A stretch of DNA of 64,000 nucleotides from Candidatus Falkowbacteria bacterium. Lineage in GTDB: Bacteria > Patescibacteriota > Patescibacteriia > Patescibacteriales > WJLG01. Within the stretch, counting starts at the first letter, position 1, and every line of letters starts with the position of its first letter. The notes beneath the pieces are model-generated. The model ran no database searches. It worked only from the letters and a program-made list of their open reading frames with translations, and had not been told where the DNA came from. Positions 3,391 through 56,535 of the stretch are shown here, piece after piece. The position numbers and the translations under genes are program-made. The stretch lies in contig CAVVFV010000010.1 of NCBI GenBank assembly GCA_963747695.1, positions 261,618-325,617 of the forward strand. Direction: 5' to 3'.

Positions 3391-3436
3391 ATTTTTTACT
3401 TTTTACATACTTGTCCCGCCGCAGCGGGATTACTTT

Positions 3437-14327: not shown

Positions 14328-14447
14328 TTGTCATTGCGAGCGCCTCGCGTAGCAATCCGGTCTCTTCAGATGTTGACGGGGTTGCTTCGCCCGCCTCGAC
14401 TCGCCGTCTTCGGCGAGGCGGGTCGCTGTCGCTCCTCGCAATGACAA
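14328..14447. repeat. 120-bp palindromic intergenic element (MITE/REP-like)
   Basis: 13-bp terminal inverted repeats TTGTCATTGCGAG / CTCGCAATGACAA enclose an inner GC-rich hairpin CCCGCCTCG..CGAGGCGGG. Confidence 0.6.
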
Positions 14448-38382: not shown

Positions 38383-38429
38383 ACTTAAAGCTTACAACAA
38401 AAGGCGTTCCAATGAAACGCCCTCTGCCC

Positions 38430-38795
38430 TTGTCGGGGTACTGGGATTCGGTCACGGCTCTCGTCGGCTTCCGCCTCCTCGGCCGCGAACCCCGCCTCGC
38501 GATGCGGCTCGCCAAATGCTCGCCACATATCGCTCCGGCATTCAAATCCCATCGCGAGCCAAGCAGTTGGCTCGCTTTACCCCGACAAAAAAACGGCTTA
38601 GGCCGTTTTTCCTTGTCGGGGTACTGGGATTCGGTCACGGCTCTCGTCGGCTTCCGCCTCCTCGGCCGCGAACCCCGCCTCGCGATGCGGCTCGCCAAAT
38701 GCTCGCCACATATCGCTCCGGCATTCAAATCCCATCGCGAGCCAAGCAGTTGGCTCGCTTTACCCCGACAAAAAAACGGCTTAGGCCGTTTTTCC
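38430..38795 (-). repeat. Tandem array (2 x 183 bp, identical) of tRNA-linked GC-rich element, subfamily 1
   Basis: Period 183 bp measured at 38430, 38613 and 38796. Each unit carries tRNA-Pro acceptor strands, a T-loop copy and a terminator-like hairpin. Confidence 0.85.
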
Positions 38796-38798
38796 TTG

Positions 38799-38884
38799 TC
38801 GGGGTACTGGGATTCGAACCCAGAACCTTCCACCTACGTTCCGAGGCGGAACTTCGGTGGACGCAGCACGCACCTTCGTGAAAA
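38799..38884 (-). pseudogene. tRNA-Pro 3' half (anticodon stem 3' strand to acceptor end) with a 38-nt hairpin insertion
   Basis: Minus strand reads GGTGCGTG + TCCACC...GGTGGA hairpin + AGGTT-CTGGG-TTCGAAT-CCCAG-TACCCCG-A. No matching 5' half adjoins it. Confidence 0.7.
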
Positions 38885-40351: not shown

Positions 40352-40476
40352 TGTGGACAATACTGGGCTCGGTCACAGCTCTCGCTCGCTTCCGCTCGCT
40401 CGGCCGCGACCCCGCCTCGCCGTCTTGCTCGCCAAATAGCTCGCAAGACATGGCTCCGGCATTCGAGCCCTGCCCC
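40352..40476 (-). repeat. tRNA-linked GC-rich element, subfamily 1 (solo copy belonging to tRNA-Val)
   Basis: Its first 21 nt (TTGTGGACAATACTGGGCTCG) equal the tRNA-Val 3' end at 40511-40531. The core is collinear with the 183-bp units. It ends in GGCATTCGAGCCC, an inverted tRNA-Val T loop. Confidence 0.8.
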
Positions 40477-40746: not shown

Positions 40747-40760
40747 CTATTAAGGCGCGC

Positions 40761-40806
40761 CTGTCCCGCCTTCACGGCGGGATACTACCGCTATACTATA
40801 CCCCGC
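40761..40806 (-). pseudogene. tRNA 5' fragment (GCGGGGTA acceptor plus D-arm-like) fused to a GC hairpin
   Basis: Minus strand reads GCGGGGTATAGTATAGCGGTAGTA, then TCCCGCC-GTGAA-GGCGGGA. No T arm or 3' acceptor strand adjoins it. Confidence 0.55.
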
Positions 40807-42154: not shown

Positions 42155-42214
42155 AGGTTTAATGATGTGTTTAATTACGCCTCAATTATAGCAGCTTTTA
42201 GATTTAAAAAACAA

Positions 42215-42814
42215 CCTGACGCAGGTCGGACTGATTCGGTCACGGCTCTCACTCGCTTCCGCCTCCTCGGCCTCGACCCCGGCTCGCGGTGCTCGGCGCC
42301 GGAATGCGCCTCGCACAACGCTGCGCCTTTCGAATCCTCTCATTTTCCATTCTAACTTAAAAGACCTGACGCAGGTCGGACTGATTCGGTCACGGCTCTC
42401 GTCGGCTTCCGCCTCCTCGGCCTCGACCCCGGCTCGCGGTGCTCGGCGCCGGAATGCGCCTCGCACAACGCTGCGCCTTTCGAATCCTCTCATTTTCCAT
42501 TCTAACTTAAAAGACCTGACGCAGGTCGGACTGATTCGGTCACGGCTCTCGTCGGCTTCCGCCTCCTCGGCCTCGACCCCGGCTCGCGGTGCTCGGCGCC
42601 GGAATGCGCCTCGCACAACGCTGCGCCTTTCGAATCCTCTCATTTTCCATTCTAACTTAAAAGACCTGACGCAGGTCGGACTGATTCGGTCACGGCTCTC
42701 GTCGGCTTCCGCCTCCTCGGCCTCGACCCCGGCTCGCGGTGCTCGGCGCCGGAATGCGCCTCGCACAACGCTGCGCCTTTCGAATCCTCTCATTTTCCAT
42801 TCTAACTTAAAAGA
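42215..42814 (-). repeat. Tandem array (4 x 150 bp) of tRNA-linked GC-rich element, subfamily 1 (tRNA-Ser copy)
   Basis: Period 150 bp measured at 42215, 42365, 42515, 42665 and 42815. Copies 2-4 are identical. A 40-nt run is identical to the 183-bp units. Each unit carries an inverted 15-nt copy of the tRNA-Ser T-loop/acceptor region. Confidence 0.85.
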
Positions 42815-42843
42815 CCTGACGCAGGTCAGGTCTTTTAAGTTAG

Positions 42844-47997: not shown

Positions 47998-49404
47998 TTA
48001 CTTCCCTGTCCGCCTTGGGCGGATGACTTCTGCCTTAAACAGATCGCCCCGTTCCTTATAATTCTTAAAACAGCCGAAACTGGCGCAGCCGGTCGAGAGC
48101 AGAACGATGTCGCCGAGTTCAGATTCTTGTTTGGCGATTCTAACAGCGTCTTTCATATTATTGACTACTCGTAACCCATAACTCGTAACCCGTAACTCTT
48201 TTTTTAACCGCTCGGACCCTTTACCTTTGAATAATATTAAAAATTTTACTCGCTTATTTATTTCTTGGGCGAATTTTTTGAAATCCGAGCCTTTGTTGGC
48301 GCCGCCGGCCAAGAGAATGATATTTTTCTTTCCCGCGAATGATTTCAAAGCGATAACGCTGACATCCGGCACCGTGGCAAAACTGTCATCAAAATAGCGC
48401 ACGCCGTTAATTTCGGCGACAAATTCCAGGCGATGCGGCAAGCCTTTGAAATTTTTCACTGTCCGAGCCACGATTATCGGCTTGATCTTCAAAATCTTAG
48501 CCACCGCAACTGCGGCGGCGATATTCTCCTTATTATGTTTGCCGATCAAATTGCTGACTAATTCCGATTTTCCGTAAACAATAACCTTTGCCGGAGTTCG
48601 GACGCCGTAATCCTTAATCTGCAAATCTTCATTGACAACTAGATAATCTTTCTTGGCCTGATGAGCGAAAATATTCGCTTTGGCGGTCCAATAATCTTTC
48701 ATCGATTTGTGATAATTCGGATTGTGCGGATCAGCTGGAGCCAGATGTTCTTTGAATAAATTAGTTACCACGGCGATGTGTGGGCTAATATCCAAATCTT
48801 CCAATTGAAAGCTGGATAATTCCAAAACAACATAATCATCCGGCTTAATTTTCTCGATAAATTCAAACGGCGCATTGCCAATATTCCCACCGAGAAAAAT
48901 ATGGCGCTTTCGTAGGAACGCAAGATTTTGCGTTCCTACCTTAAGAATTTCATAAATCAGCGACGAGGTTGTCCCCTTGCCTTTCGATCCGGTGACGCCA
49001 ATGATATTTTTCGTCGGACATAATTGAAAAAATAATTTCATCGGGCTGGATATTTCCACGCCGGCTTTCTTAGCCTTGAGCAGATTGGGATTAAAAAGCG
49101 GGTAGCCGGGCGAACGAAAAATAATGTCAAAATCCGCCAGATGCTTATCGTAATCCTTGCCGGTCATCAAATTTATCCCCGGCATTTTATTCTTCCGCGC
49201 CAATTCCTTAATCTCCAAAAACCGATCGCCCAATTCCGCCGCCGATTTCGGATCGCAAACCGTAATATGCAACCCTTGCCCCGCCGCAGTCTCCGCCGCG
49301 TGACTGCGGCGCAATAAATATTTCACCAACGCCAAATTCTCCACCCCCAACCCGAGCATGGCAATCTTCTTATTCTGCAAAAATTTTAATTTATCCTTTA
49401 TCAT
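47998..49404 (-). CDS. murD: UDP-N-acetylmuramoylalanine--D-glutamate ligase
   Basis: GVTGSKGKGTT P-loop, Mur ligase middle and C-terminal domains. Carries two repeat-derived in-frame inserts. Confidence 0.85.
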   Translation of the reverse strand: MIKDKLKFLQNKKIAMLGLGVENLALVKYLLRRSHAAETAAGQGLHITVCDPKSAAELGDRFLEIKELARKNKMPGINLMTGKDYDKHLADFDIIFRSPGYPLFNPNLLKAKKAGVEISSPMKLFFQLCPTKNIIGVTGSKGKGTTSSLIYEILKVGTQNLAFLRKRHIFLGGNIGNAPFEFIEKIKPDDYVVLELSSFQLEDLDISPHIAVVTNLFKEHLAPADPHNPNYHKSMKDYWTAKANIFAHQAKKDYLVVNEDLQIKDYGVRTPAKVIVYGKSELVSNLIGKHNKENIAAAVAVAKILKIKPIIVARTVKNFKGLPHRLEFVAEINGVRYFDDSFATVPDVSVIALKSFAGKKNIILLAGGANKGSDFKKFAQEINKRVKFLILFKGKGSERLKKELRVTSYGLRVVNNMKDAVRIAKQESELGDIVLLSTGCASFGCFKNYKERGDLFKAEVIRPRRTGK

Positions 49405-49460
49405 GCGTTTTTCTTACTTCTTAATTCCTACTTCTTACTTTCTTGTCCGCCTTGGGCGGG

Positions 49461-52295
49461 TTACTTCTTACTTTCCAGCTTTTCCAATTCTCCCCAACTC
49501 TCCCCGATCTCAATATCCACCACGACCGGAACTTTTAATTTTAAGATGTTGCGCATGATGTCCTGAATGCGGCCGGCCGCTTCTTTCATCTTGTCTTCGC
49601 GCATCTCGAAAACCAGTTCGTCATGGACTTGGATTATCATCTTCACGCTCTCGGAATATTTTTCGTCAATTAAATTTTGAGTGAGGATCATCGCCTTCTT
49701 GATCATATCGGCGTTTGTGCCTTGTAGCGGCGTGTTGACGGCCATCCGTTCGGCGGCGGCGCGGACCGGCGCCACTTGCGAAGTTATCTCCGGCAAGTAA
49801 CGGCGGCGGCCAAATAAAGTTTCGACATAACCATTCTTGCGGGCGAAGGCCACCATATCTTCGGTATAGGTCCGGATATTCTTGTAGAGATCAAAATAAT
49901 GCTCAATGAATTCCTTGGCGCGGTTCAACGGCATATCGGTATTCTGCGCCAGGCCATAAGGTCCTTGGCCGTATAAAATCCCGAAGTTGATCGCCTTGGC
50001 TTCCTGGCGCATCTTTTTAGTAACGTCTTCGATCTTTACATTATTAATGGCGGCCGCGGTGGAAGTGTGGATGTCCAGGTTGCGCTCGAAGGTATCGATC
50101 ATCCTTTTGTCGCCGGACAAATGGGCGGCCAGGCGCAATTCGATCTGCGAATAATCGAGCGACACGATTTTCCAGCCTGGTTGGGAAATAAACGCCTTAC
50201 GGATTTCCTGGCCGAGTTCGGTGCGGATCGGAATATTCTGCAGATTCGGATCAGAAGAAGAAAGACGGCCGGTCGCGGTGACAGTCTGGTTAAAGCTGGT
50301 ATGGACGCGGCCGGTGATCGGATTGACGAGCAGCGGCAACGCCTCAATATAAGTAGATTGTAATTTAGCCAATTCGCGATACTCCTGGATCAACGGGATT
50401 ATTTCGTGCTCGTGCTTTAATTTTTCCAATTCATCGGCGGCGGTCGAATAACCGGTCTTGGTATGGCCGATGCCGGCCGTGGAAATATTTAATTTCTCAA
50501 ACAAGACTTCTTTCAATTGCTGGGTGGAATTAATATTAAATTCGCCGCCGGCCAAAGCATAAATCTTTTTTTCCAATCCCGTGATCCGCTTGGCTAATTT
50601 TTTATCCATCGCCGCCAAAAAATCCTTATCAATTTTCACGCCATTATCTTCAACGGTGGCCAAAACCGGCACCAGCGGCATTTCGATTTCTTCGAACAGC
50701 TTGGTCAGTTCTTTGTCGCGCAGATGCTTAGCCAATTTAGCTTGCAGCCGGTGGGTGAAATCCGCGTCCTCGCAGGAATAGAGCGCCAGCTTGGCCGTCT
50801 CCACCGTGGCAAAAGTTTTCTTATCCTTGCCCGATCCGAGCAAATCTTCCGTGCTGATTTTTTCAAAACTCAACTCGGAAAAAGTCACGGCATCCAGATT
50901 ATGCTGCCTGGTGCCCGGATTCAATAAATACGAGGCGATCATCGTATCAAAATCGATTCCTTTCATATCAATCCCGGCGTGCCGCAGAACGCGCAAATCA
51001 AATTTGATATTATGCCCGCACTTCTTGATCTTCTCATCTTCCAAAATCAGTCTCAACTTTTCCAACCAAGGGTTAATATTTTTTGAACTAGTTTTTTCTT
51101 TAGTGTCAAAAAGACTATTTTGATTTTTCTTCTCTCTTATCTCCTCTCTCTTAACTGAAACATAATAGGCCTCCCCTTCGCGCCAAGAAAAACTGATGCC
51201 GAGCAATTCTTCCAGCAGCGGATCAAATCCGGTCGTTTCCGTATCGATCGTAAATTCTTTTTGCTTAGCAAGCGCCGCCAAAAATTTGGCGAATTTTTTA
51301 TCATCGTCAACTAAAGTATATTTGAATTCAGTCCGATTGCGCTCGAACTTGTCCGCCGTGGCCTGCGCATACGCGGCTTTATCGGAAACTTTGAAATGGG
51401 CGGAAACCAGATCCTGCACCCGCGGCAGTAACGATTTGAAACCCAGCTCGCTGAAGAGCCCGGCAACTTTTTCGCGGTCAAAATCATAAGCGCGGCATTT
51501 TTCCAAATCGAATTTTATCGGTACATCCAGTTTAATGGTGGCTAGATCTTTTGATAAATAGGCATCTTTCTTATGTTCAAGCAATAAATCAACAACCCGG
51601 GGCGGAATTTGGAATTTGGAATTTGGAATTTGGAATTTTTTATACAAATTATCCAGCGTCCCAAATTCTTGCAAAAGTTTAGTCGCGGTTTTTTCGCCGA
51701 TGCCGCGGACGCCGGGAATATTATCGGACGGATCACCGCGCAAAGCTTTGTAATCGATCATCTGGTCCGGCGCGAGGCCGTATCTTTCTTTGACTCGGGC
51801 GTCATCATAAACAACGCTTTCGCTTAAGCCATGCCCCATGGTAAAAACTTTGGTCGAAGAGTCGACCAGTTGCAAAGTATCCATATCACCGGTGACGATT
51901 ATTTTTTCCACTTCCGGACCGACCGTCTTATCGATCGTGCCGATCAGATCATCAGCCTCAAAACCTTGCAGCTCGAAAATCGGGATATTGAAAGCCTTGG
52001 CCACCTCTTTGACGCGCGGAATCTGATCATAAAGATCTTGCGGCGCCTTAATTCTGGTAGCTTTATATTCTTTATATTTAAGATGACGGAAGGTCGGACC
52101 TTTCATATCCAAAGTCAGGGCGATATAATCCGGTTTCAATTCGCGCCAGGCCTTCAATAAGACCGCGGAAAAACCATAAACTGCGTTGACCAATTCGCCG
52201 TCTTTGGTGCGCAAAGTCGGCGGCAGAGCGTGAAAACTGCGGTGGATCAAAGCGTTGCCGTCGATAATGACTAATTTTCCTTTCTGTTTAGACAT
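49461..52295 (-). CDS. polA: DNA polymerase I (5' nuclease, 3'-5' exonuclease-like and polymerase domains)
   Basis: 5'-nuclease GIGEKTA H3TH motif. Polymerase motifs DYSQIELR, RR.AK..NFG..YG and QVHDE. Confidence 0.95.
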   Translation of the reverse strand: MSKQKGKLVIIDGNALIHRSFHALPPTLRTKDGELVNAVYGFSAVLLKAWRELKPDYIALTLDMKGPTFRHLKYKEYKATRIKAPQDLYDQIPRVKEVAKAFNIPIFELQGFEADDLIGTIDKTVGPEVEKIIVTGDMDTLQLVDSSTKVFTMGHGLSESVVYDDARVKERYGLAPDQMIDYKALRGDPSDNIPGVRGIGEKTATKLLQEFGTLDNLYKKFQIPNSKFQIPPRVVDLLLEHKKDAYLSKDLATIKLDVPIKFDLEKCRAYDFDREKVAGLFSELGFKSLLPRVQDLVSAHFKVSDKAAYAQATADKFERNRTEFKYTLVDDDKKFAKFLAALAKQKEFTIDTETTGFDPLLEELLGISFSWREGEAYYVSVKREEIREKKNQNSLFDTKEKTSSKNINPWLEKLRLILEDEKIKKCGHNIKFDLRVLRHAGIDMKGIDFDTMIASYLLNPGTRQHNLDAVTFSELSFEKISTEDLLGSGKDKKTFATVETAKLALYSCEDADFTHRLQAKLAKHLRDKELTKLFEEIEMPLVPVLATVEDNGVKIDKDFLAAMDKKLAKRITGLEKKIYALAGGEFNINSTQQLKEVLFEKLNISTAGIGHTKTGYSTAADELEKLKHEHEIIPLIQEYRELAKLQSTYIEALPLLVNPITGRVHTSFNQTVTATGRLSSSDPNLQNIPIRTELGQEIRKAFISQPGWKIVSLDYSQIELRLAAHLSGDKRMIDTFERNLDIHTSTAAAINNVKIEDVTKKMRQEAKAINFGILYGQGPYGLAQNTDMPLNRAKEFIEHYFDLYKNIRTYTEDMVAFARKNGYVETLFGRRRYLPEITSQVAPVRAAAERMAVNTPLQGTNADMIKKAMILTQNLIDEKYSESVKMIIQVHDELVFEMREDKMKEAAGRIQDIMRNILKLKVPVVVDIEIGESWGELEKLESKK

Positions 52296-53759: not shown

Positions 53760-54395
53760 CTATTCTAAAGTCTCAAAATAATCCGCGGCGGCGGTTATCA
53801 GATCGCTCGGTTTTTCAACAATTCGGAATGGTTTCCCTTGCCGCAAGGTTTTCGGAAAATGAAACCCCCAAGTGACGGCAATCGCTCCCACGCCCATCTT
53901 TGCCGCCTCGCGCATATCACCCAGCGTATCAGTGATAAAAACACAATCATCCGGGATGATGCCGTATCTCTCAAAAACCATTTTAATTTTTTCAACCTTG
54001 CTTTGATGAATATCATTGCCCAAAATTTTCGCGAAATGATCCGCCAACCCGGCTTTTTCCAAAAAATTCTGAATCGGGCTGGTGATAGTGGAAGATACAA
54101 CGACCAAAAAATAATTTTTTTCCAACGCGATGATCGCCTCTTTTATGCCGGGCACTATTTTGACTTCCTTTTCCATCCGCGGGATATATTCCGCGAAAAA
54201 ATCAATCCCGTGCCGGCATTCCTTGGTATGTCCGTTTACCGGATCTTCCCAATCATTAATATTTCCGTCAAAGCGCCGGCGATAATCTTTTTCGCTCAAC
54301 CGCGGACAAATCATTTTATTAATTTCAAAAGCTAACCCGTAAGAATCGGCGATGACGCCATCGAAGTCAAAGAGTAAATATTTTTTCATGCTCAA
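53760..54395 (-). CDS. HAD-superfamily hydrolase (phosphatase-like)
   Basis: LLFDFDGVIADS motif I, SS motif II, and a late GD..D motif. Confidence 0.8.
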   Translation of the reverse strand: MSMKKYLLFDFDGVIADSYGLAFEINKMICPRLSEKDYRRRFDGNINDWEDPVNGHTKECRHGIDFFAEYIPRMEKEVKIVPGIKEAIIALEKNYFLVVVSSTITSPIQNFLEKAGLADHFAKILGNDIHQSKVEKIKMVFERYGIIPDDCVFITDTLGDMREAAKMGVGAIAVTWGFHFPKTLRQGKPFRIVEKPSDLITAAADYFETLE

Positions 54396-54885
54396 TTGGA
54401 TTTTTAATTATTTTGGTGAGTTGTCTTATGTCGCCGGGAGTTGTCAGATAGATTCCGTGGCCGGACGGCAGCGTATATAAAGTGATATGAGTCGGCGGCA
54501 CTTCAATTTCTAGATGGTATTTTTTATTTAATAACGTAAAAAAATTATCCAAGAAAGAAACATCCGCCATGATAACCACCGTTCGCCGCTCATTTTGCTC
54601 GACAAATCTGAATTCATCGCGGAAAGCCGTCAGAGAAACATCGTGCGCCTTGGTAAATTCGCAAAAATCCTTGATGACTGACTTGGCAAAATCCGGAATC
54701 GCAATCTTATTTTTTTCAATGATCTTTCCGATGCAAACCAGGCTGACATGAAAAGATGATCTCAACGCCAATCGATATCCTTCAACTTCAATCTCGCGCG
54801 GCAAATCCCTTAACTCTACCGGCAGCACAATATTCTCCCACTCCAGAAGATATTTTTTCTTCCCGCAAAGATATTTATTTTCCAT
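54367..54885 (-). CDS. 2H-phosphoesterase-superfamily protein (LigT-like)
   Basis: Two HxS/Tx motifs (FHVSLV and THITLY) at the appropriate spacing. Confidence 0.5.
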   Translation of the reverse strand: MENKYLCGKKKYLLEWENIVLPVELRDLPREIEVEGYRLALRSSFHVSLVCIGKIIEKNKIAIPDFAKSVIKDFCEFTKAHDVSLTAFRDEFRFVEQNERRTVVIMADVSFLDNFFTLLNKKYHLEIEVPPTHITLYTLPSGHGIYLTTPGDIRQLTKIIKNPIEHEKIFTL

Positions 54886-54894
54886 AAAATAAAG

Positions 54895-55347
54895 CTACGC
54901 CTCTAATTTAATGCTGTCATTGGTGACAATTTTGCCGTAAAAATCTAATTTTTCTTGGGTATTATCGTTGATGCCTAAACTCAAATAACTTTTATCCTCC
55001 GCTTGATAATCCCAGAATCTTTCGCTATCGCCTTTTTTAAAAATCTCTTCTCCTTCAATTTCTTCGGCGACGGCATGGGCCGCATACTGAAATTTGAATT
55101 TCTTTCCGTCAAAGTCAAGCTCGGGCGGAAATGGCTGTTGAAAATGCGTTGGCGTTTCTTTAACCAAAAGAAAGATATTTTCTTTCAGGTCATCGGCAAA
55201 AACATAATCGTCGCTCAGAAAACATTTGATATAAAAACTGCCATCGTCAAACCTGAATTTGACCACTTCTTTAACGATAAAATCCCGGCCCTCAACCGAC
55301 AATTTAATGTTTGGTTTAATTTTTGAGCGAAACTCCTTTACTTCCAT
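54895..55347 (-). CDS. Hypothetical protein
   Basis: 150-aa ORF. No confident family. Confidence 0.4.
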   Translation of the reverse strand: MEVKEFRSKIKPNIKLSVEGRDFIVKEVVKFRFDDGSFYIKCFLSDDYVFADDLKENIFLLVKETPTHFQQPFPPELDFDGKKFKFQYAAHAVAEEIEGEEIFKKGDSERFWDYQAEDKSYLSLGINDNTQEKLDFYGKIVTNDSIKLEA

Positions 55348-55371
55348 AGATAGCCCCGGCTATGAATAAAA

Positions 55372-55836
55372 TTATTCCGTTTCTAAACTCTTTTCCCAGC
55401 CCTCAATGACTTGCAAAGCCTGATTCTCTAATTCTAAAAAATGAATAAGCTCGATAGGGTGTCGTGTAAGTCGATTGATTGAATTAAGATCGTGCTTTCC
55501 TTCGTAGTGTTGTTGGGAAACTCGTTCACGGCTGCAAGCATAAACTATTTTGGGTACAGAAGCCCAGATTGAAGCAGAGAAACACATCATGCAAGGTTCC
55601 AGCGAAGAGTACAAGACAACCTTTCTTAAATCCCTAGTTTGCAATTTTTGGCATGCCTCACGTATTGCCGCCGTTTCCGCATGGCTTGTCGGGTCATTAA
55701 GTTGCTTGCCGTTGCTTATTCCAGAAGCCAAAATTTCTCCGTTTTTAACAATGATTACTCCAACGGGAAAACCACCCAAAGCAACAGACTCCTTTGATTT
55801 TTCTATCGCAACTTGTAGAAATTTTGCGTCATCCAT
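55372..55836 (-). CDS. CMP/dCMP-type zinc deaminase (TadA/guanine deaminase-like)
   Basis: HAETAAI and PCMMC zinc-binding motifs. Confidence 0.8.
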   Translation of the reverse strand: MDDAKFLQVAIEKSKESVALGGFPVGVIIVKNGEILASGISNGKQLNDPTSHAETAAIREACQKLQTRDLRKVVLYSSLEPCMMCFSASIWASVPKIVYACSRERVSQQHYEGKHDLNSINRLTRHPIELIHFLELENQALQVIEGWEKSLETE

Positions 55837-55886: not shown

Positions 55887-55924
55887 TGGACCAGAGGAGG
55901 TTCGAACTCCTTACCTCCGCGTTG
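55887..55924 (-). pseudogene. tRNA-Ala-like 3' fragment (anticodon stem 3' strand to acceptor end)
   Basis: Minus strand reads CAA-CGCGG-AGGTA-AGGAG-TTCGAAC-CTCCT-CTGGTCC-A. It pairs with the 5' fragment at 56136-56156, including G3:U70. Confidence 0.65.
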
Positions 55925-55939
55925 TCCCGCACCTTTTTG

Positions 55940-56011
55940 TGGAGATAAGGAGACTCGAACTCCTGACCCTCGCGTTGCAAACGCGATGCTCTACCACTGA
56001 GCTATATCCCC
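55940..56011 (-). tRNA. tRNA-Ala(TGC)
   Basis: Acceptor GGGGATA/TATCTCC with G3:U70, anticodon arm TCGCG-TTTGCAA-CGCGA, T arm AGGAG-TTCGAGT-CTCCT, A73. Confidence 0.9.
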
Positions 56012-56135
56012 AAAAAAAGGTGCGGGACGGCGCTCCCTGTCCCGCTCCAGTTTTCAATATTAAAACAAAGATTTGTTTTTTTTATATATTATTTAAAATT
56101 TCGAACCCTATTCTTCTGCAAAAACTGGGGCGGGA

Positions 56136-56156
56136 TACCAACTGAGCTACTGGCCC
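56136..56156 (-). pseudogene. tRNA-Ala-like 5' fragment (acceptor plus D stem/loop)
   Basis: Minus strand reads GGGCCAG-TA-GCTC-AGTTGGTA, then diverges into TCCCGCCCCAG. Confidence 0.6.
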
Positions 56157-56283
56157 AATTCATAAATAACCAATAATCAATATCAAATATCCAATAAACA
56201 TTCAAGTCGAATAATTTTTGAATATTAATTTATTAAAATATTTTTTTGATATTGGTTATTTGATATTTGATATTTTTTTCTAA

Positions 56284-56535
56284 TTATCCTCTTCCGGCAT
56301 TGATCAGCGGCGACAAGAGCCACATCATAAAATCGCCGAAAACATTAGTCGCGAGCATCACTCCGATGATAAAGACCAAAATTCCCAACAACTTATAGCC
56401 CAGGCGCGATCCGCCTTCGGTGCCTAAATATTTTTCAAAGAAACCGACTCGACCGAACATATTTAACATCGCCTCTGATTTAATTGTGATCAGCGCGCCG
56501 ACTACGGCAAGCACCAAGCCGAGGATGATACTCAT
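56284..56535 (-). CDS. Small membrane protein (2-3 TM)
   Basis: Hydrophobic 83-aa ORF downstream of the M23 peptidase gene. Confidence 0.45.
   Translation of the reverse strand: MSIILGLVLAVVGALITIKSEAMLNMFGRVGFFEKYLGTEGGSRLGYKLLGILVFIIGVMLATNVFGDFMMWLLSPLINAGRG

Follow-up and report, generated by a model that had tools for sequence, protein, structure and literature searches.

The window analysed here is a 64-kb stretch of a Candidatus Falkowbacteria genome (contig CAVVFV010000010.1). On its minus strand, between positions 56156 and 55887, a complete tRNA-Ala(UGC) gene lies inside the pieces of another tRNA-Ala gene. We regard this locus as probably a compensated disruption of a tRNA gene, in which the inner gene replaces an outer gene of the same anticodon. 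The outer pieces correspond to nucleotides (nt) 1-21, 22-29 and 36-73 of intact orthologues in related genomes, and nt 30-35, which include anticodon positions 34 and 35, are absent. Joined to each other, the pieces yield no tRNA call by ARAGORN; with CGTTTG restored as nt 30-35, they are called as tRNA-Ala(TGC), and the restored gene is identical to the intact gene of the relative L042 at 66 of 73 positions. Because the missing nucleotides include anticodon bases, removal of the inserts would not restore an outer tRNA. The ancestral outer gene and the inner gene have the same UGC anticodon, and since the intact orthologues share it with the inner gene, the outer gene is no second isoacceptor. 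Judged from its sequence, the outer gene represents the former resident tRNA-Ala(UGC), now a pseudogene or relic that would be unable to give a decoding tRNA. It is most likely a leftover shell, not a second tRNA awaiting splicing.

The inner gene, which the original prediction had placed at 56011-55940, is called there by ARAGORN and, at 74.1 bits to the Rfam tRNA model, is the top-scoring tRNA of the window. That prediction had left a choice between a disrupted pseudogene and an unusual precursor from which the inner tRNA is excised. The former is borne out by the intact tRNA-Ala(UGC) genes that L042 and L097 carry at the syntenic place and by the loss of nt 30-35 from the outer pieces. The latter fails for an outer tRNA product, given that there is no anticodon to restore, no bulge-helix-bulge and no difference in isoacceptor; excision of the inner tRNA itself is probable, as suggested by the position of a promoter-like site.

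A Logan contig from an independent assembly matches the full locus without a single difference, and the architecture recurs in three other genomes; hence, the locus is not an assembly artefact. The proteins encoded in the window, including PolA, a Mur ligase and an M23/LysM peptidase, form a bacterial gene set. The closest named relative of the adjacent deaminase is found in a Candidatus Sungbacteria genome, and many of its matches are labelled Patescibacteria. By this gene content and these matches, the host is a bacterium of the Candidate Phyla Radiation (CPR) and no archaeon.

Layout of the 270-nt locus

The coordinates of the pieces, inserts and arms are listed in Table 1. The outer 5' piece (56156-56136) reads GGGCCAG-TA-GCTC-AGTTGGTA. 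It is interrupted in the D loop by a GC-rich hairpin whose strands, TCCCGCCCCAG and CTGGAGCGGGA, pair at 10 of 11 positions (15 nt at 93% if the flanking A/T runs are counted) and enclose an AT-rich loop with a GC content of 18%. The outer 5' piece, the segment pairing back at 10 of 11 positions and the hairpin GCGGGAC..GTCCCGC are all present on the minus strand as first noted. The AT-rich stretch had been put at 80 nt and is 74 nt long. It is also the only part enclosed by the 10/11 helix, which had been thought to loop out the inner tRNA; the inner tRNA is instead bracketed by the 15-bp helix. Within the AT-rich loop, AGGGTTCGAAAT (56100-56112, minus strand) resembles a T-arm fragment, and the loop is absent in L045 and L065.

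The final G of outer nt 22-29 doubles as part of the left arm of the inverted repeat. The left arm is separated from the inner tRNA by TT, and the inner tRNA from the right arm by a single C. The two 15-mers are perfect reverse complements, and complementarity extends into the inner acceptor stem (29 nt at 86%). The original prediction of a perfect 15-bp inverted repeat thus holds, with the downstream arm at 55924-55938 and not at 55925-55939. Its description of the 3' fragment was also accurate, as the acceptor strand pairs with GGGCCAG at 7/7 positions including G3:U70. Folding the 270-nt region, which it had proposed as a check, gives -111 kcal/mol compared with -73.6 +/- 4.7 kcal/mol for shuffled sequences (z = -8.1; 0/200 shuffles as good). 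The predicted fold forms the outer acceptor stem, the outer D stem (GCUC/GAGC), the outer T arm, both long helices and the inner cloverleaf.

Table 1. Features of the nested tRNA-Ala locus and of a structured repeat found near tRNA genes; positions are those of the window unless a relative is named.
Feature	Position	Strand	Remarks
Putative sigma-70-type promoter for the whole unit, TTGAAT-17 nt-TATTGA	56177..56205	-	Proposed from reading the sequence; consensus scan made no call
Outer tRNA-Ala relic nt 1-21 (acceptor 5' strand, positions 8-9, D-stem 5' strand, D loop; GGGCCAGTAGCTCAGTTGGTA)	56136..56156	-	Equals nt 1-21 of the intact syntenic L042 gene
Insertion 1, D-loop GC-rich hairpin element	56036..56135	-	TCCCGCCCCAG 56135-56125, AT-rich loop 56124-56051, CTGGAGCGGGA 56050-56040, CAGG 56039-56036
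Outer relic nt 22-29 (D-stem 3' strand, position 26, first 3 anticodon-stem nt; GAGCGCCG)	56028..56035	-	Matches GAGCGCCG in intact L042 and L097; invariant in four nested genomes
Left arm of perfect 15-bp inverted repeat (GTCCCGCACCTTTTT); putative 5' leader of inner tRNA	56014..56028	-	Invariant in the window, L045, L065 and L047/48
Inner complete tRNA-Ala(UGC), proposed functional replacement gene	55940..56011	-	ARAGORN; Rfam tRNA 74.1 bits, full length
Right arm of 15-bp inverted repeat (AAAAAGGTGCGGGAC); putative 3' trailer of inner tRNA	55924..55938	-	Invariant in all nested genomes
Outer relic nt 36-73 (CAA CGCGG AGGTA AGGAG TTCGAAC CTCCT CTGGTCC A)	55887..55924	-	Acceptor pairs 7/7 with GGGCCAG including G3:U70; T stem 5/5
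GC-rich ~111-nt structured repeat	38428-38816 (2 copies, period 183), 40363-40473, 42214-42827 (4 copies, period 150)	-	Diverged copy at ~19511-19700
~111-nt structured repeat in relatives	L047 3067-3178, L048 1307-1418, L065 701-812		

States, decay and spread of the locus among relatives

Comparison of genomes at the syntenic locus, the other check that had been proposed, revealed three states: intact, tandem and nested. More than 10 related genomes keep the gene order of M23 peptidase, 83-amino-acid membrane protein (56284-56535, upstream of the locus; homologues 50-93% identical) and tRNA-Ala locus, and in most of them SNase and PolA come next. In the intact state, L042-44 carry a single tRNA-Ala(UGC) at the syntenic site (GGGCCAGTAGCTCAGTTGGTAGAGCGCCGCATTTGCATTGCGGAGGTAAGGGGTTCAAATCCCCTCTGGTCCA), and the L042 gene sits between the same gene for the 83-amino-acid protein and SNase. 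L097/98 carry a tRNA-Ala(UGC) reading GGGCTGT...GAGCGCCGCGTTTGCAACGCGGAGGTCGCCGGTTCAAATCCGGCACAGTCCA, and L049/50 a third tRNA-Ala(UGC) allele, which starts GGGCCCG. In the tandem state (L040, L092-94), a decayed older copy comes first and is followed by a different intact tRNA-Ala(UGC); the decayed copy consists of nt 1-21, the hairpin TCCCGAG..CTCGGGA directly after GGTA, and then remnants. The nested state is found in L045/46 with the same outer allele as in the window (GGGCCAG/CTGGTCC), and in L047/48 and L065 with the outer allele GGGCTGT/ACAGTCC, of which L097 represents the intact form. Nested genomes share the exact junctions, which are GAGCGCC followed by GTCCCGCACCTTTTT on the left of the inner tRNA and AAAAAGGTGCGGGAC followed by AACGCGG on its right. 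The inner tRNA and the right arm are separated in L047/48 and L065 by a 165-nt element, which contains a terminator-like hairpin of its own and is bordered by a repeat, 18 nt long, of the inner tRNA 3' end. The tree of the M23 peptidase and the 83-amino-acid protein is star-like, with nested, tandem and one intact genome mutually 75-82% identical and the other two intact genomes further out. Thus, the tree cannot tell whether the nested state had a single origin.

The nested genomes combine invariant parts with parts that differ or have decayed. GAGCGCC, both 15-nt arms and the first nucleotides of the 3' piece are invariant in all four, and the inner tRNA is identical across them except for one D-loop T. 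The D-loop hairpin is different in each. In the window it starts TCCCGCC and has the 74-nt loop; at the same position, L045 has CCCCGTC ATTC GACGGGG and L065 has CCCGCCTG CCGG CAGGC(A)GGG, both with 4-nt loops. In L047/48 the hairpin is gone, the region is degenerate and the D-loop GG is lost. The outer T arm of L045 reads AGGAG TTCTAAC CCCCT, with one pair broken and a T replacing the usual purine at T-loop position 57, and its outer 3' piece carries three changes, in the T loop, a T-stem pair and the variable loop. The T-arm damage in L045, the D-loop loss in L047/48 and the variability of the hairpin are, as far as these alignments indicate, marks of relaxed constraint. Between the window and L045, the arms and junctions (55 nt) show 0 differences, and the upstream intergenic spacer is 81% identical (P ~9e-6 if the arms and junctions were neutral at the spacer rate). 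We read this as a 15-bp stalk that is probably under selection or was recently homogenised, and the evidence on the outer pieces as mixed. The two outer alleles differ compensatorily at three acceptor pairs and two T-stem pairs. The same differences are already present in the intact genes of L042 and L097, and hence they are no sign of selection after the disruption.

The distribution of the cassette, as we call the inner tRNA with its two arms, suggests exchange between lineages. The same cassette with the same junctions occurs in two outer alleles, each of which is also found intact elsewhere (L042, L097). The outer gene of the window is a mosaic: its acceptor stem is identical to that of L042 and its T arm nearly so, and its anticodon-stem remnant CCG...CAACGCGG matches L097. 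Moreover, the nested modules of L065 and L048 are nearly identical and their upstream spacers are unalignable. Taken together, the two host alleles, the mosaic outer gene and the module sharing show movement of the locus, or of its central part, from one lineage to another, which points to homologous recombination or mobility of the cassette; both would fit. At its borders, the ~105-nt cassette replaces 6 nt, with GAGCGCCG and CAACGCGG now on its two sides compared with GAGCGCCGCGTTTGCAACGCGG in intact genes, and there is no target-site duplication. Neither the pair of 15-bp arms nor the outer 3' end recurs elsewhere in the 64-kb window, and no direct repeats of attachment (att) type flank the cassette. 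Pfam detected no transposase or integrase among the 26 open reading frames (ORFs) of the window that were scanned, and viral contigs gave no match to the inner tRNA, to the arm of the cassette or to the structured repeat of Table 1. A metagenome scan with GCGCCGTCCCGCACCTTTTT, a pattern that includes outer-gene bases and is thus blind to other insertion sites, gave 41 matches, of which one was a cassette (L065, same locus); the others were unrelated, several of them from human-gut assemblies.

Beyond the tRNA-Ala locus, the neighbourhood is variable. Before SNase, the window (53760-55836) carries a deaminase, a DUF4178 protein, a 172-amino-acid protein and a HAD hydrolase. Downstream of the locus, L045 has only the 172-amino-acid protein, L048 has a different HAD, and other relatives have SNase directly. 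As the window, L045 and L048 have extra genes after the tRNA, we considered an integrated genomic island as the cause, and rejected it: in L065 the nested locus is followed at once by SNase, and there is no repeat of att type. A comparison anchored on the deaminase in species-representative genomes found neither conserved synteny nor a tRNA-Ala upstream in relatives.

Proposed history and competing explanations

As a whole, we consider it likely that the locus arose by two insertions that left a relic and supplied a replacement. An ancestral tRNA-Ala(UGC) with the acceptor GGGCCAG/CTGGTCC would have been broken twice, so that two generations of the gene are now combined in one locus. The first insertion would have placed a GC-rich palindromic hairpin after D-loop nt 21, with a loop that is enlarged here by the 74 AT-rich nt. 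The second would have replaced nt 30-35 by the ~105-nt cassette, a different complete tRNA-Ala(UGC) between the 15-bp inverted repeats. From then on, the inner gene would supply the tRNA and the outer pieces would be a relic. The module or its central part would then have moved between related genomes by recombination or by a mobility of its own.

The unit would be transcribed from the old promoter (TTGAAT-17-TATTGA) upstream of the outer 5' piece; the layout TTGNAT-17-TATTAA/TATTGA is also found there in L045 and L047. Because this is the only conserved promoter-like site, the inner tRNA would have to be cut, and most likely is excised, from a transcript that also holds the outer pieces. The relic and hairpin would then form the leader of the inner pre-tRNA, and the right arm and outer 3' piece its trailer. 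The 15-bp arms would lengthen the inner acceptor stem into a stalk, and the inner tRNA might be freed by the usual enzymes of end processing (RNase P, RNase Z or exonucleases, with RNase III possibly acting on the stalk). The invariance of the arms suggests that the stalk matters for this release. Around the putative promoter (56164-56287), there are AT-rich inverted repeats of ATATCAAATA/CCAATA motifs, which are kept in L045 and L047 and not in L065; they could act as an operator.

Several points weigh against this history. We infer both the co-transcription and the role of the stalk in processing from the sequence. Just upstream of the inner tRNA, and in the window only, GCGGGAC-N10-GTCCCGC-ACC-T7 is terminator-like; a terminator scan made no call, yet the element could be a terminator that competes with the first helix, which would argue against read-through. 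The 165-nt element splits the inner tRNA from the right arm in L047/48 and L065, and hence the stalk is not indispensable in every lineage. The outer acceptor stem and T arm of the window are still perfect, and the outer pieces of the window and L045 are identical at 56/59 positions, above the 81% of the spacer (P ~0.002). This conservation might alternatively reflect some remaining constraint on the outer pieces or a module that was transferred recently. Finally, our tRNA inventory covers the 64-kb window, and any further tRNA-Ala(UGC) elsewhere in the genome lies outside its scope.

In another reading, the outer halves are a functional scaffold that holds the precursor in a tRNA-like shape and helps to make or stabilise the inner tRNA, or they form a two-piece alanine-accepting RNA. 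We think this improbable. In the two-piece variant, which we find no more convincing, the released outer pieces would stay paired via the 15-bp helix and the acceptor stem and might be charged by alanyl-tRNA synthetase (AlaRS) through G3:U70. AlaRS recognises acceptor minihelices via G3:U70, all four nested genomes preserve the outer acceptor stem (7/7, with G3:U70), and three of them also preserve the T stem. The fold of the whole region retains the outer cloverleaf frame, and the outer pieces and arms are better conserved than the neighbouring spacer. However, the compensatory differences between outer alleles, being found in intact L042 and L097 as well, predate the disruption or were imported, and a scaffold sits poorly with the damaged T loop and T stem of L045, the damaged D loop of L047/48 and a hairpin that differs in each genome. 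In L047/48 and L065, moreover, the 165-nt element with its terminator-like hairpin parts the inner tRNA from the right arm and outer 3' piece. The AT-rich loop contains a short GCA-GAA-GAA-TAG frame and is absent in relatives, which makes a role like that of transfer-messenger RNA (tmRNA) unlikely. A tmRNA proper, one-piece or permuted, was rejected: ARAGORN finds none, the Rfam model tmRNA_permuted scores 13.6 bits compared with a gathering threshold of 47, and the loop is absent in L045 and L065.

We give hardly any credence to the inserts being introns whose removal would let the outer exons be ligated into a second tRNA-Ala, or to the outer tRNA being split. The outer pieces are collinear and able to pair, and group I introns are known from Patescibacteria, where they interrupt anticodon loops of tRNA genes at position 35/36 (PMC13011429). 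However, nt 30-35 with anticodon positions 34-35 are absent and the joined exons give no tRNA. Rfam reports only tRNAs in the window, both at the gathering threshold and at permissive E-values; no intron family matches at either setting (E up to 10), and this includes the group I intron core (Intron_gpI). The junction consists of a 3-bp helix, a 5-nt one-sided bulge and the 15-bp helix, and is not a bulge-helix-bulge. In addition, the host is bacterial (PolA, Mur ligase, M23/LysM), and a spliced outer tRNA would bring no gain, as the anticodon of the intact orthologue is that of the inner gene. The interruption resembles the group I introns in phylum and in its place near anticodon-loop position 35/36 (PMC13011429), whereas the tRNA-Ala insert has neither group I structure nor an Rfam match, contains a tRNA gene and removes anticodon nt. 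With archaeal intron-containing, split and permuted tRNAs (Nanoarchaeum, Caldivirga), the locus shares non-canonical interruptions (D loop, anticodon arm) and a GC-rich helix that joins the flanks like the leader helices of split halves. It differs from them in lacking a bulge-helix-bulge, in its incomplete exons, in its bacterial genome and in an outer gene that is redundant with the inner one.

A further reading turns the cassette into the agent of the disruption: a non-autonomous mobile element would enter the anticodon loop of its cognate resident tRNA, destroy it and supply a copy, so that the host cannot lose it. We regard such a "kill-and-replace" element as unlikely, and the same doubt applies to the corollary that the nested structure is its signature and no one-off accident. 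It would explain identical junctions in two resident alleles, GGGCCAG/CTGGTCC (window, L045) and GGGCTGT/ACAGTCC (L047/48, L065), and the mosaic outer gene of the window with its L042-like acceptor and T arm and L097-like anticodon-stem remnant. The perfect 15-bp terminal inverted repeats are what such an element might have, the hairpins of a family dispersed over the genome match the arm ends TCCCGC/GCGGGA, and comparable tRNA insertions are seen in the anticodon-loop region of the resident tRNA-Pro at two Pro loci of the window. On the other hand, six nt are replaced without a target-site duplication, the arms have no second copy in the window, the 26 scanned ORFs hold no transposase or integrase, and viral contigs gave no match. 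The metagenome scan, whose pattern is blind to other sites, gave one more instance at the same locus, and the sharing of modules between L065 and L048 fits homologous recombination of the whole locus equally. Tentatively, and with little weight, the tRNA-Ala cassette and the two Pro-locus insertions might form a class of small, protein-less, hairpin-bounded, self-addicting tRNA elements that spread among CPR bacteria. If such a class existed, which we also doubt, its members might act beside a D-loop-targeting hairpin element and a structured repeat that targets tRNA 3' ends.

The disruption that we favour belongs to a known kind. Phages and plasmids that integrate into tRNA genes bring a replacement segment with them. 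At the tRNA-Thr(GGU) locus of Caldiarchaeum subterraneum, a tRNA gene was disrupted by an integrating element that left fragments (PMC3293823). As with integrating elements at tRNA genes (PMC3293823), the resident tRNA-Ala is interrupted and an old fragment lies beside a functional copy, related genomes show different states of the locus, and the breaks fall in the anticodon-arm region. Here, by contrast, the host is bacterial, and the insert measures only ~105 nt, has no recombinase and brings a whole tRNA gene and not a partial segment. Furthermore, both old fragments flank the new gene, there is no direct att-type repeat, and 6 target nt are lost. Miniature inverted-repeat elements and repetitive extragenic palindromic (REP)-like elements are similar in their perfect terminal inverted repeats, small size and lack of coding capacity, and also in that one GC-rich hairpin family occurs at scattered intergenic sites with a loop size that varies between copies. 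In contrast to these elements, the cargo here is a complete tRNA gene, without a target-site duplication and without a second copy of the arms in the window. We found no description of nested bacterial tRNA genes in the literature. What sets this locus apart is a tiny, protein-less insert in a bacterium that carries a whole tRNA gene of the same anticodon and leaves both old halves around it.

Other tRNA relics and repeats, and what they imply

The likeness to a Pro locus that the original prediction had pointed out is real, and it extends to two loci. At 39064-38798 (minus strand), a tRNA-Pro(CGG) with encoded CCA is nested in an almost identical outer tRNA-Pro(CGG), and its leader and trailer, GAAAATGGT and ACCATTTTC, lengthen the acceptor stem. 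Unlike those of the outer tRNA-Ala, the outer tRNA-Pro(CGG) pieces give a complete tRNA when joined; at position 35/36 the outer gene also contains a CCCGCC...GGCGGG hairpin and, at 43/44, an inserted hairpin of 38 nt. At 40815-40609 (minus strand), a tRNA-Pro(GGG) lies between two tRNA-Pro fragments. The upstream piece reads CGGGGTA...GGTAGTA and is followed by the hairpin TCCCGCC GTGAA GGCGGGA CAGG (40759-40786), the downstream one is a short tRNA-Pro 3' end finishing CCAGTACCCCGACA, and a 16-bp inverted repeat (CCCCTCACCATTTTTC/GAAAAATGGTGAGGGG) lies just upstream. The hairpin of the tRNA-Pro 5' piece, GTA/TCCCGCC-loop-GGCGGGA-CAGG, is of the same type as the tRNA-Ala D-loop hairpin. Directly upstream of an intact tRNA-Gly(CCC), a tRNA-Gly(CCC) relic (39531-39456, minus strand) retains nt 1 to ~48 and carries a 15-nt hairpin, TCCGCC CAA GGCGGA, in its anticodon loop. 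A comparison of the Pro/Gly/Val cluster in a relative, anchored on the SDR gene, showed that synteny is not conserved there.

Short GC-rich hairpins of the form GTA(A)-YCCSGC(C)-loop-(G)GCSGGR-CA(A/G)G occur inside tRNA relics and also at gene ends (3400-3430, 48000-48025 and 49440-49462, minus strand). Direct repeats border two of them: GAAAGTAAGAAGTA, 14 nt long, at 49442 and a similar one at 3410. The pattern CCGCC-N(3-30)-GGCGG occurs 14 times in the window, compared with 3 expected.

The ~111-nt structured repeat (Table 1) comes shortly after tRNA-Pro, Val, Ser and Arg genes, from which a terminator-like hairpin separates it. Its first nucleotides are the reverse complement of the T loop and T-stem 3' strand of the neighbouring tRNA; next to tRNA-Pro, Val and Arg, its last ones copy the 3' end of that tRNA. 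Its structure is a three-way junction with tandem G-A motifs (repeated GCGAG). The consensus has 35 pairs, of which 10 carry compensatory changes in a set of six sequences, compared with 4.2 +/- 1.3 in shuffles and 0-3 with slid partners. Rfam gave no match to the repeat. A copy is inserted behind the inner tRNA-Ala in L047/48 and L065, where the 18-nt duplication of the tRNA 3' end flanks it. This repeat may be more novel than the nested tRNA-Ala. A GCGAG-rich, GC-rich intergenic element at 14330-14440 (minus strand), which is closed by TTGTCATTGCGAG...CTCGCAATGACAA and follows a small ORF, matches the model of the ~111-nt repeat weakly (16.9 bits).

For annotation, the outer halves of the tRNA-Ala locus should not be labelled as a split or intron-containing tRNA. 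The locus also raises the question of how, with no recombinase nearby, GC-rich hairpins come to be inserted behind position 21 of the D loop and entire tRNA genes in anticodon loops; such cassettes could be selfish. The invariant 15-bp stalk is a candidate bacterial pre-tRNA processing signal. More generally, tRNA genes in these reduced CPR genomes seem to turn over fast and in unusual ways. Close relatives differ at one syntenic locus, where the gene is intact, broken by a hairpin and followed by a new copy, or broken and occupied by the new copy, and relics of the same kinds are found at several further tRNA loci of the 64-kb window.

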